From: Escherichia coli
GTDB taxonomy: Bacteria; Pseudomonadota; Gammaproteobacteria; Enterobacterales; Enterobacteriaceae
Strand: one strand, 5' to 3'
Assembly: GCF_003334355.1 (NCBI RefSeq)
Contig: NZ_QOWP01000005.1
DNA length: 64,000 nucleotides
Part shown: positions 25,398 to 28,265 of the stretch, one piece after another
How positions within the stretch are numbered: position 1 is the stretch's first letter
Layout: every line of letters begins with the position of its first letter
Position numbers and translations under genes: made by a program
Notes under the pieces: model-generated
Seen by the model: only the letters and a program-made list of their open reading frames with translations
What the model was told of the DNA's origin: nothing
Database searches by the model: none

Positions 25398-25587
25398 GCA
25401 AAAGAGAGTAATTATTGTTTATTTAGCGTATTATCGACACCGGCCCTTTCCGCCGTGTTCGGTAATAAAATAACCTGGCTTATTAGTCCGAATTCAGACA
25501 AATATAAACAAATCCTGCTCAAAATTAAAAATTCTAACCGGTAAAAGATATTACTTAAACATGTAAATTCACTTTCCTTTAAAAAAC

Positions 25588-25616
25588 AAAAAACCGCCAA
25601 AATCAGGCGGTTTTTT
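25588..25616. terminator. bidirectional intrinsic terminator (second copy)
   Basis: AAAAAACCGCCAAAATCAGGCGGTTTTTT. Confidence 0.75.
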
Positions 25617-25684
25617 GTTGCTGGTCCGGTTCGCGGCCTTTCCAGCAGGTTGTATTACCGTAGTAATGCAAGCGCGTCTCAGCG
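25588..25684 (-). ncRNA. candidate ~100-nt sRNA, copy 2 (TimR-like antitoxin candidate), divergent from the ryfA-like transcript
   Basis: minus-strand TTGACA-N17-GAGTAT promoter (25691..25719), terminator at 25588..25616; contains GGAAAGGCCGC. Confidence 0.4.
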
Positions 25685-25690
25685 GAGACA

Positions 25691-25719
25691 ATACTCGCCA
25701 GTAACTCTCTTTTTGTCAA
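25691..25719 (-). promoter_or_regulatory. putative sigma70 promoter for sRNA copy 2
   Basis: TTGACA (25714..25719 complement), 17-bp spacer, GAGTAT (25691..25696 complement). Confidence 0.35.
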
Positions 25720-25808
25720 GCAAAAGAGAGTTATTATTGTTCTGTTAGTGTATTATCCACTGCGGCCCTTTCCGCCGTCTCGCAAACGGGCGCTGGCTTT
25801 AGGAAAGG

Positions 25809-25883
25809 ATGTTCCGTGGCCGTAAATGCAGGTGTTTCACAGCGCTTGCTATCGCGGCAATATCGCCAGTGGTGCTGTCGTGA
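25809..25883 (+). CDS. small ORF 1, 24 aa (MFRGRKCRCFTALAIAAISPVVLS), hypothetical membrane peptide
   Basis: AGGAAAGG directly upstream of ATG; hydrophobic; below ORF-track size cutoff; an upstream CCCTTTCC could sequester the SD. Confidence 0.3.
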   Translation: MFRGRKCRCFTALAIAAISPVVLS

Positions 25884-25907
25884 TGCGGTCTTCGCATGGA
25901 CCGCACA

Positions 25908-26033
25908 ATGAAGATACGGTGCTTTTGTATCGTACTTATTGTTTCTGGTGCGCTGTTAACCGAGGTAAATAATAACCGGAGTCTCTCCGGCGATAATTTA
26001 CTGGTGGTTAACAACCTTCAGAGCAGCAAGTAA
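25908..26033 (+). CDS. small ORF 2, 41 aa (MKIRCFCIVLIVSGALLTEVNNNRSLSGDNLLVVNNLQSSK), candidate type I toxin-like peptide
   Basis: same frame as ORF 1, separated by a TGA and 4 codons; alternative ATG at 25896 gives 45 aa; about 15-residue hydrophobic N-terminal segment; no strong SD. Confidence 0.4.
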   Translation: MKIRCFCIVLIVSGALLTEVNNNRSLSGDNLLVVNNLQSSK

Positions 26034-26063
26034 GCCCGAATGCCGCCCTTTGGGCGGCATATT

Positions 26064-26840
26064 TTAGATTATCCGATTCTGTTTAAAGTCACGCAAAAAA
26101 CCACCCCAGCGACGTTCATAGAATGGCGCAATATGTTCGGTAATAAAGTGGCTAATTCCTTTTTCCCCTTTTTTCACCTGACAAATATCGATTGGTTCAT
26201 CGCCAGGTAATGTATCGGTCGCTACACTTCCCGTCGCCTGAATAATTTCTTCGATATCACCATCGGCTTCAATGCCAATAAGTAAATTAGGCTGTGCCTC
26301 TTCGTTCTCTTTAATTGAACAAATAAAAGCACGCTTCACCGGCTTAATGGTTTTAAATAAGGTGGTGAGTGAATCAATCATTTGTGCTGGCGGCTCTGCG
26401 ACTTCCGATAATATCAGCGATTCACCGCCTTCCAGGATTTCCTGGCTGCTCAGCGGATTTCCCTCTTCACCAATCAACAAACTGATTTCACGCGGCATAA
26501 ATTCTTTACCGGTTGGCAGTTTGGCATTAAGGAAGAGCGTTTCGCCAAGTGTCATCTCAAACAGCGTGCGAACGGGCATTACGACAAATGCCTGTTCGTC
26601 TTCAACCGCCTGTTGAAGTGCTTCTAACGAGGTGAAAAAAGGAATGACGCTGGTGCCGTCTTCTTTTTCCCAGTGCTGTAAATCAAGCGCGCTATCTTCA
26701 ACCACAGCCTCGCCCTGCGCCGCCGTACCAGGCACCCAGACGGTGGATTCCAGTAGAGTACGGAAAAAGGCCGGGCGGTGCGCCGGTTCAGTTGCTGCTT
26801 TTTCCAGCAGGTCTTCAAGTTCGTTTTTTGTTTCGGACAT
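26064..26840 (-). CDS. sseB: SseB (enhanced serine sensitivity protein)
   Basis: ORF track frame; ATG at 26840 (MSETKNELEDLLEKAATEPAHRPAFF...); ORF-track start at 26849 is a GTG 3 codons upstream. Confidence 0.88.
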   Translation of the reverse strand: MSETKNELEDLLEKAATEPAHRPAFFRTLLESTVWVPGTAAQGEAVVEDSALDLQHWEKEDGTSVIPFFTSLEALQQAVEDEQAFVVMPVRTLFEMTLGETLFLNAKLPTGKEFMPREISLLIGEEGNPLSSQEILEGGESLILSEVAEPPAQMIDSLTTLFKTIKPVKRAFICSIKENEEAQPNLLIGIEADGDIEEIIQATGSVATDTLPGDEPIDICQVKKGEKGISHFITEHIAPFYERRWGGFLRDFKQNRII

Positions 26841-26876
26841 AAGAACCACAATTCATTCAACGTTCGGGGCGCAAAT

Positions 26877-26973
<97 letters not shown>

Positions 26974-26981
26974 ATATTAGT

Positions 26982-28265
26982 TTACGCCGTTAACAGATTA
27001 GCTATCGTGCGCACACCAAGTCCCGTAGCGCCCGCAGACCACTGTTCAACCGGCGCTTTACGGTAAGTCGCCGAGCAGTCGATATGCAGCCAGCCTTGCT
27101 GATAGTTCTCAACAAAGTGCGACAGGAAGCCCGCCGCCGTGCTCGCGCCTGCCGGATACGCCGCGCTTCCGGTATTGTTCAGTTCGGCAAAGTTAGACGG
27201 CAGCTGGCTGCGGTGGAACTCCGCCAGCGGCAGACGCCAGAACGGTTCGTTCTCCTGCGCGGCACTCGCCAGCAAGCGACCGGCCAGCGCATCGTCAAAA
27301 CTGAACAGCGCGTGATAATCATTACCCAGCGCAGTTTTCGCCGCCCCGGTGAGGGTCGCCGCATCAATGATCATTTCCGGTTTCTGCGCACTGGCATCAA
27401 TCAGACCATCGGCAAGCACCAGACGCCCTTCGGCATCAGTGTTCATCACTTCAACTTTTTTACCGTTGCGATAGGTGATGATATCGCCCAGCTTGAACGC
27501 ATTGCCGCTAATCAGGTTATCCGCACAGCAGAGGAACAGCTTCACGCGCTTGTTCAGTCCGCGCGTAATGGCAAATGCCAGCGCCCCGGTAACCGTTGCC
27601 GCGCCGCCCATGTCCGACTTCATCGAGTCCATAAACGCAGTCTGTTTGATGCTGTAGCCGCCGGAGTCAAAAGTGATACCTTTACCTACCAGGCACGCGT
27701 ACACTGGCGCTTCTTTATCGCCAGTTGGGTTGCAATCCAGCGCCAGCAATACCGGAGAACGTTCTGAACCGCGTCCGACGGTGTGCAGCCCCATATAACC
27801 TTGCTCACGCAGATCTTCGCCTTTGGTGATCCGATAAGTCACACGATCGCCCGCGACGTTGCTGATCAGATCAACAGCACGCTGTGCCAGTTGCGATGGT
27901 CCCAATTCTTCTGCCGGTGCGTTGATGGTGTCACGCACCCAGTCGATGATCATCAGGCGGTTATCCAGTTCCTGGCGCTGGGCATCGTCCAGATCCGGCC
28001 ACTCCACTTTACGCGTGCCTTTCGGGGCTTTGTAACCTTGCCAGAATGCCCAGCAGCGATCCGCATCCCAACCTTCACCGCTTAACTGAACATGCTTGAT
28101 GCCCAGACCGTCAATCTTGCGGGCCGCACGCTGGATCAGCCCCAGATCGTCTGCCCCGTTCAAATGCAGGGTAATGCCATCATTATTAATGCTGTAAGTT
28201 GCTTTTTCTCCCCAGCGCGCGTCGGCAGGTTGGGTAGAGAGGGTAATTTTCATCGCTTCTGTCAT
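26982..28265 (-). CDS. pepB: aminopeptidase B (peptidase M17 family)
   Basis: ORF track 427 aa, [30 protein letters not shown]... Confidence 0.95.

Follow-up and report, generated by a model that had tools for sequence, protein, structure and literature searches.

The closest described system is timP/TimR of Salmonella enterica (PMC7667032, PMC11228461, PMC13000454), and it is for Salmonella only that the toxicity of TimP on expression and the translational repression by TimR have been demonstrated (PMC7667032). The Salmonella leader has been dissected into four stem-loops, SL1 to SL4, with the Shine-Dalgarno (SD) sequence sequestered by SL4, SL2 bound by TimR, and a pseudoknot, essential for timP translation, that joins site 1 in SL1 to site 3 in the SL3 loop (PMC11228461). 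A contact between sites 2 and 4 frees the SD, and a contact between sites 1 and 2 locks the inactive form (PMC13000454). The Salmonella mRNA is translated efficiently both in vitro, in a purified system, and in vivo; deletion of SL2 is neutral for translation, destabilisation of SL1 abolishes it, restoration of SL1 rescues it, and a mutant of a putative upstream ORF (AUG 53-55, stop 77-79) leaves it unaffected (PMC11228461). Studies in UPEC and APEC found no TimP-dependent phenotype (PMC8205139, PMC13188913).

We analysed a window of 64,000 nucleotides of an Escherichia coli genome (RefSeq assembly GCF_003334355.1, contig NZ_QOWP01000005.1), that is, the whole stretch of DNA to which the coordinates given here refer. 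The first-pass annotation had pointed to two small ORFs lying in one frame inside a ryfA-like transcript and parted by a TGA and four codons, and the letters are as it described them. In the ORF listing, ORF 1 (25809..25883, plus strand) runs from an ATG to a TGA and encodes 24 aa (MFRGRKCRCFTALAIAAISPVVLS), and ORF 2 (25896..26033, plus strand) starts with an ATG and encodes 45 aa (MDRTMKIRCFCIVLIV...), with an internal ATG at 25908 that gives a 41-aa form. The two frames are the same (25896-25809 = 87 = 29x3), the spacer consists of the TGA (25881-25883) and the codons TGC GGT CTT CGC, and a hypothetical read-through from ORF 1 into ORF 2 would yield 24+1+4+45 = 74 aa. A complete ATG ORF of at least 24 codons occurs in 16% of dinucleotide shuffles of the 144-nt leader, the two strands of the window hold 418 ATG ORFs of at least 24 aa, and the prior for sharing the frame of the next ORF is 1/3. 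The arrangement of ORF 1 and ORF 2 is statistically unremarkable.

The transcript that carries both ORFs comprises the following features.

25762..26065, plus strand: timP mRNA, formerly the sRNA RyfA (Rfam RF00126 ryfA, 314.2 bits, model positions 1-296 of 296, E 1e-87)
25908..26033, plus strand: timP coding sequence, 41 aa, small toxic inner membrane protein (NCBIfam NF040796, RefSeq and the alignment)
26040..26065, plus strand: intrinsic terminator of the timP mRNA (9-bp stem with 7 GC pairs and a T tail; 3' helix of the Rfam model)

The full-length match to RF00126, whose gathering score is 80 bits, assigns the window RNA to the ryfA family and encloses both ORFs. The flanking genes sseA, sseB and pepB identify the E. 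coli sseA-ryfA-sseB intergenic region, and the 901 bases around the locus are 99.8-100% identical to phylogroup-A and K-12-like genomes. The locus is present in all 5426 complete E. coli genomes, and timP is annotated in essentially every one of them. A hairpin at 25915-25934 directly follows the timP start codon (TACGGTGC-TTTT-GTATCGTA); the Rfam model includes it, and the terminator scan picked it up. Between sseB and pepB, a REP-like sequence at 26943-26987 partially matches naRNA4 (RF02564) with 40 bits, below the gathering score.

The profile of a small membrane toxin had been read from ORF 2, and this reading is borne out. The 45-aa form scores 86.4 bits against the NCBIfam TimP family NF040796 (cut-off 45) and, because positions 1-40 of the profile align to its residues 5-44, the TimP family begins at MKIRCF. 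RefSeq annotates timP at exactly 25908-26033 and leaves ORF 1 unannotated; ORF 1 alone gave no match to protein families. The ATG at 25896, with which the 45-aa form used in one UPEC paper begins (PMC8205139), lies within the SL4 loop (25896-25898), where it overlaps the SD, and its position reads AAG in Rahnella, Erwinia and Salmonella in our alignment. In Salmonella, where the ortholog has been characterised, an ATG-to-AAG mutation proved the start that corresponds to 25908 (PMC7667032), and PMC7667032 reports significance for +145..+261 only. On these sequence grounds ORF 2 is timP, with 25908 as its true start and a product of 41 aa, and thereby the toxin gene of the type I toxin-antitoxin system timP/TimR. 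The locus is an already known one, annotated in RefSeq and with its mechanism dissected in three papers from 2020 to 2026.

We then placed ORF 1 on the leader. The numbering was transferred from the Salmonella locus (L045) and PMC7667032; by homology with the Salmonella +1, the transcription start lies at about 25764, so that the timP AUG falls at +145 and the ORF 1 AUG at +46. The leader elements, in order, are the following.

25768..25807, plus strand: SL1 (pair counts and MFE fold; structure as in PMC11228461)
25791-25797, plus strand: pseudoknot site 1, CGCUGGC, in SL1
25809..25883, plus strand: ORF 1, leader +46..+120, covering the nucleotide after SL1, site 2, SL2 and SL3
25818..25823, plus strand: site 2, GGCCGU, which pairs with site 4; ORF 1 codons 4-5
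about 25825-25843, plus strand: TimR target, hypervariable; ORF 1 codons 6-12 and location of the TAG in most E. coli
25828..25849, plus strand: SL2 (helix 3, paired 97.3%)
25851..25884, plus strand: SL3 (helix 4, paired 92.5%); ORF 1 codons 15-24
25865-25871, plus strand: pseudoknot site 3, GCCAGUG, in the SL3 loop, which pairs with site 1
25885..25904, plus strand: SL4, which sequesters the timP Shine-Dalgarno UGGA, 25897-25900 (PMC11228461)
25885-25890, plus strand: site 4, the 5' flank of SL4 and partner of site 2

About 51 of the 75 nt of ORF 1 lie within helices or the pseudoknot, and the SL2 loop adds the TimR target. The lower stem of SL1 pairs CCUUUCC with GGAAAGG (25768-25773 with 25802-25807), and this GGAAAGG, the sole SD-like sequence ahead of the ORF 1 AUG, is hence sequestered as the 3' strand of the stem; an AGGA stands 4 nt upstream of the AUG. 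At the other end, the UGA of ORF 1 (25881-25883) is part of the base of the SL3 stem, 1-2 nt from SL4, 13 nt from the SD and 24 nt from the timP AUG (25908).

The conservation of this structure was examined across relatives. One genome per species was scanned with the SL4 pattern, which gave 35 loci, 20 of which Rfam assigns to ryfA (Escherichia, Citrobacter, Superficieibacter, Yersinia, Rahnella, Erwinia and Pantoea); loci of Salmonella, C. freundii, C. farmeri and E. marmotae were brought in via their TimP proteins. In a 21-sequence alignment the cells of the SL1-SL4 helices are 96.2% paired compared with 37-49% when the partners are slid, the invariance of SL4 being in part built in, as SL4 served as the search pattern, and 7 pairs show changes on both sides. 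In SL1, helix 1 is paired in 96.8% of cells and helix 2 in 100%. In the site 1-site 3 pseudoknot and the site 2-site 4 contact every cell is paired (100%), and 3 pairs have changed on both sides; all 6 positions of site 2-site 4 are paired in 21/21 sequences. Slid-partner controls over helices and long-range contacts gave 29-68%. The seemingly synonymous changes in the "SPVV" stretch of ORF 1 (TCG/TCA/TCT, CCA/CCG) are pseudoknot covariation with site 1. The window has the complete leader architecture, namely SL1-SL4, the SD within SL4 and the site 1-site 3 and site 2-site 4 contacts. By homology with Salmonella, SL4 would hide the timP SD in the E. coli leader, the pseudoknot together with the site 2-site 4 contact would open it, and the binding of TimR to SL2 would block this opening. 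We infer that the E. coli timP leader probably works as an RNA switch.

The region is very probably the timP/TimR locus, in which ORF 2 is timP and ORF 1 is a fortuitous frame in a structured 5'UTR and not a gene. The variation by codon position in ORF 1 gave entropies of 0.668/0.595/0.478 for positions 1/2/3, the third being the least variable, whereas the timP control gave 0.603/0.365/0.817, the third being the most variable. The in-frame pN/pS was 1.15 for ORF 1 versus 0.49 for timP (off-frame, 0.65 and 0.71 for ORF 1, 0.89 and 0.91 for timP), and the bootstrapped values were 1.09 (CI 0.72-1.85) and 0.56 (CI 0.44-0.71), respectively. When only the intact alleles bearing the ATG were considered, the ORF 1 frame gave 1.06, the highest of the three frames (0.52 and 0.70 for the others). 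Neither a synonymous excess nor third positions more variable than the others was found for ORF 1, whereas the timP control displays the coding pattern; the synonymous-site check of the relatives speaks against conservation of ORF 1 as a reading frame.

The alleles of ORF 1 lead to the same view. At least 2898 of the 5426 complete E. coli genomes (~53-55%), which share an identical 48-mer, have a TAG at codon 6: the ST131-type allele (1094 genomes by 48-mer count) and the B1-type allele (1887 genomes) read ATG TTC CGC GAC CGT TAG. The window-type allele is found in 1972 genomes. All 24 codons are kept, without the Cys-Phe motif, in the O157-type allele (350 genomes, RKYRHPTV) and in a further allele (193 genomes, RKCRHPTV). 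Among 30 unique sequences, 16 have the ATG, its bearers being E. coli, a rare Salmonella allele, C. freundii, C. farmeri, Superficieibacter, Pantoea and four Rahnella. Sequences with the ATG mostly keep the frame open over all 24 codons; in C. farmeri a 1-nt indel in SL2 shifts it. In mainstream S. enterica (TimP P0111, at least 1000 contigs) and S. salamae the start position reads ATA; Yersinia has AGT, ATA or ATT there, Erwinia has AAT, and two Citrobacter have ACA or TCG. With the TAG in ~55% of E. coli, the ATG missing in several genera and a pN/pS of 1.09, ORF 1 does not qualify as a gene.

The frame of ORF 1 is free of stops in 20/23 sequences, compared with 14/23 and 5/23 for the other two frames. 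This openness is read as passive, because most of the codons lie in near-invariant helices and the frame is open even without a start codon. Likewise, ORF 1 and timP stay in one frame because indels are hardly tolerated in the helices, and not because a protein is read.

Two genes upstream of the transcript, on the opposite strand, are candidates for the antitoxin.

25263..25362, minus strand: distal timR-like antisense sRNA gene, with inferred ends (gene organisation as in PMC7667032)
25589..25684, minus strand: proximal timR-like antisense sRNA gene, with inferred ends (recognition 17-mer 25668-25684, of the ST131/B1 allele type)

Inverted repeats that resemble terminators (25258-25295 and 25585-25619) go with these genes, and the window has what is expected of an antisense sRNA, a divergent neighbour with a terminator that is complementary to timP SL2. 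The 5' recognition 16-mer of the distal gene, GCAGGTGCTTCACAGC (25347-25362), matches the window SL2 GCAGGTGTTTCACAGC (25828-25843) with one G.U. The proximal recognition sequence (25668-25684) is identical to SL2 of the ST131/B1-type timP alleles and not to the window SL2; the neighbouring antitoxin is not the best-matched one, because the proximal timR fits the ST131/B1 SL2 and the distal timR fits that of the window. In the ST131 and O157 loci, 16-17 nt of SL2 are repeated exactly in the upstream antisense gene. A remnant of a second timP 5' end lies at 25422-25630 on the plus strand (Rfam IS128, RF00125, 262 bits).

The TimR-target region (25825-25849) falls into at least 5 discrete E. coli allele classes (1972, 1094, 1887, 350 and 193 genomes), which, where checked (loci L003, L004, L008 and L009), have an exact mirror in their own upstream antisense gene. 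These classes look like a co-diversification of toxin-antitoxin RNA specificity within one species. From the sequence comparisons, the codon-6 stop in most E. coli and the loss of Cys-Phe elsewhere are predicted side-effects of this co-variation of toxin and antitoxin RNA. Recurrent deletions were also observed, which fuse the timR recognition sequence to the identical SL2 stretch (a direct repeat on the plus strand) with loss of both promoters and of SL1; they occur in E. marmotae (L055/L056), C. farmeri (L057), C. amalonaticus (L023) and Y. aleksiciae (L038), and in the E. marmotae and C. farmeri deletion loci the promoter-less timP coding sequence is still annotated as TimP. Yersinia pekkanenii has at least 3 ryfA/timP copies in one genome (L027, L028 and L029), whose SL2 sequences differ.

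It had also been proposed that the two ORFs arose by an internal duplication, or that they once formed a single protein of about 74 aa which the TGA later split. Such an origin would agree with their common frame and with the fact that both begin with a basic-Cys-Phe motif followed by a hydrophobic run; the resemblance of RKCRCF (ORF 1) to KIRCFC (ORF 2) gave p ~0.03 in protein local alignment, a value that is post hoc and uncorrected. Between the nucleotide sequences of the two ORFs, on the other hand, no similarity was found (p ~0.9). The Cys-Phe motif is missing from other ORF 1 alleles (RKYRHP, RKRRHV, RQRRRN), and the shared RCF is confined to the window-type E. coli allele, because the TimP of genera other than Escherichia and Salmonella has MKRY[FIL]C or MKIRY[FV]C, with Tyr instead of Cys. 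The proposed duplication does not hold on these data.

As for a formerly longer protein, the TGA is kept in 29/30 unique sequences, over 8 genera. The one exception is a C. freundii allele annotated as a 71-aa TimP (P0067, MSHGRISKRTSVLAITALSPVVLSWCGLRMDRAMKIRYF..., locus L050 1201-1416), in which a TGG in place of the TGA makes the ORF continuous and retains the SL3 base pair as G.U. The suggestion that the TGA may be a sense codon elsewhere stands for this allele and fails for the other sequences. P0067 is found on 3 contigs versus 174 and 177 for the normal C. freundii alleles (38 or 42 aa) and, because it is rare and nested inside these normal alleles, the TGG is derived; P0067 is a rare derived allele where the gene caller took the longest ORF. 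With the 74-aa query, no ORF 1-TimP fusion was found among the E. coli proteins returned from a collection of 5.8 billion sequences, a profile search with the TimP alignment retrieved one such fusion, C. freundii P0067, and a TimP search of protein representatives, which did not reach Salmonella, gave only 5 close E. coli forms. Considering also a pN/pS of ~1 upstream of the TGA, a descent of the two ORFs from one duplicated or longer coding unit is highly improbable, and the phylogenetic distribution already contradicts it.

In two other joined proteins, P0006 (E. coli) and P0071 (E. albertii), small deletions in the region of SL4 and the start codon have linked a +1-frame upstream ORF (MTVNAGTPQCLLSRQYRQWCCRDAV...) to the body of TimP. 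They look like degenerate timP alleles called as hypothetical proteins.

The stable hairpin directly after the UGA raises the question of whether the codon is decoded, by readthrough or as selenocysteine, with SL4 as the downstream element and an N-terminally extended TimP as the product. SL4 is nevertheless accounted for as the helix that sequesters the SD (PMC11228461), neither SECIS-type nor recoding families turned up in a permissive Rfam scan of 24000-28000, and in most lineages the upstream frame is broken or lacks a start. We regard decoding of the TGA as extremely improbable.

The remaining alternative is that ORF 1 is a translated, mok-like leader ORF in K-12-type and O157-type E. coli, Rahnella, Pantoea and C. 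freundii. Ribosomes moving through SL2-SL3 to the UGA would then unwind either the pseudoknot or the 5' half of SL4, which would adjust timP initiation or the access of TimR. Coupling by uORFs is known in type I systems (hok/mok, PMC11228461), and the ATG in 16/30 unique sequences with its AGGA 4 nt upstream, the stop lying 1-2 nt before SL4 and 24 nt before the timP AUG, and the stop-free frame in 20/23 sequences would all suit such a role. Yet the frame ends at codon 6, ahead of SL2, in ~55% of E. coli, and the mainstream Salmonella timP, which is without the ATG, is translated in the purified system (PMC11228461). The Salmonella mutants point in the same direction, since Delta-SL2 is without effect and the destabilisation of SL1, which would expose the SD of ORF 1, abolishes translation (PMC11228461). 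Moreover, SL1 pairing occupies the SD-like GGAAAGG in 96.8% of cells, and the peptide is without purifying selection. A translated leader ORF is thus unlikely, with only a small probability left to it.

The published uORF beginning at AUG 53-55 corresponds to the CCAUGGCC start, and its knockout in Salmonella is no direct test of ORF 1 because this AUG lies in the +1 frame relative to ORF 1; in the window, the +1 frame has a GTG at 25816. The Salmonella data are nevertheless strong as indirect evidence: the mainstream alleles that fit the published numbering have AUA at +46, and PMC11228461 mentions no start other than that of the AUG 53-55 uORF. The study of Fris 2017 (PMC5333039) was considered as a test of ORF 1 and set aside: its GFP fusion concerns a different ORF, of 30 aa. 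No ribosome profiling of the locus was found in the literature, and ryfA/timP is absent from the PIRT-Seq and Ribo-RET preprint supplements.

Some E. coli, Rahnella, Pantoea and C. freundii are the lineages that keep both AUG(+46) and the full 24 codons. In the AUG(+46)-keeping lineages, occasional translation of ORF 1 might provide a lineage-specific, mok- or attenuator-like input to the timP switch, which we hold to be decidedly unlikely. If it were true, this layer would be missing from the Salmonella model strain and the codon-6 TAG alleles would be natural knock-outs.

Returning to the preferred reading, ORF 1 as a fortuitous frame in the timP leader, the finding is an ordinary one, because ORF 2 is the known timP and ORF 1 is a chance frame in a folded leader. 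Its value is mostly one of annotation hygiene: the 24-codon upstream frame should stay out of small-protein catalogues, and it explains over-long "TimP" calls by gene callers, such as the 71-aa C. freundii form. The apparent conservation of the ORF 1 peptide is a by-product of RNA helices, pseudoknot and antisense target, which makes ORF 1 a cautionary case for the discovery of small ORFs in structured leaders.

In comparison with known systems, the window agrees with timP/TimR of Salmonella enterica (PMC7667032, PMC11228461, PMC13000454) in its synteny (sseA ... timR/timP ... sseB), its RNA family and the AUG at +145, as well as in SL1-SL4, the site 1-3 pseudoknot, the site 2-4 contact and a divergent antisense sRNA complementary to SL2; the two TimP proteins are the same at the N-terminus MKIRCFC. 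It differs in that the E. coli TimP has 41 aa and another C-terminal half, that the leader has AUG and not AUA at +46, opening the 24-codon ORF 1, and that two timR-like genes and the remnant second timP 5' end (IS128) are present.

Like hok/mok/sok, the window has a type I toxin mRNA with a sequestered toxin SD and a short ORF upstream, the RBS of which is itself structured. However, mok overlaps hok and is needed for hok translation, whereas ORF 1 ends 24 nt before timP, its stop lying 13 nt before the SD and outside the toxin RBS and start. A conserved start with an intact ORF, as in the mok type, is not what the relatives show either (ATG in 16/30, TAG at codon 6, frameshift in C. farmeri): ORF 1 is truncated or start-less in most lineages, and the Salmonella timP is translated without it. 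Finally, tisB/IstR-1 and zorO/OrzO, which have structured 5'UTRs and initiate by way of standby sites or with the help of a pseudoknot, resemble timP in that translation needs a leader structure far upstream of the RBS and the antitoxin binds the leader instead of the RBS; the tisB and zorO mRNAs need 5' processing, whereas the timP mRNA switches conformation without cleavage (PMC11228461).
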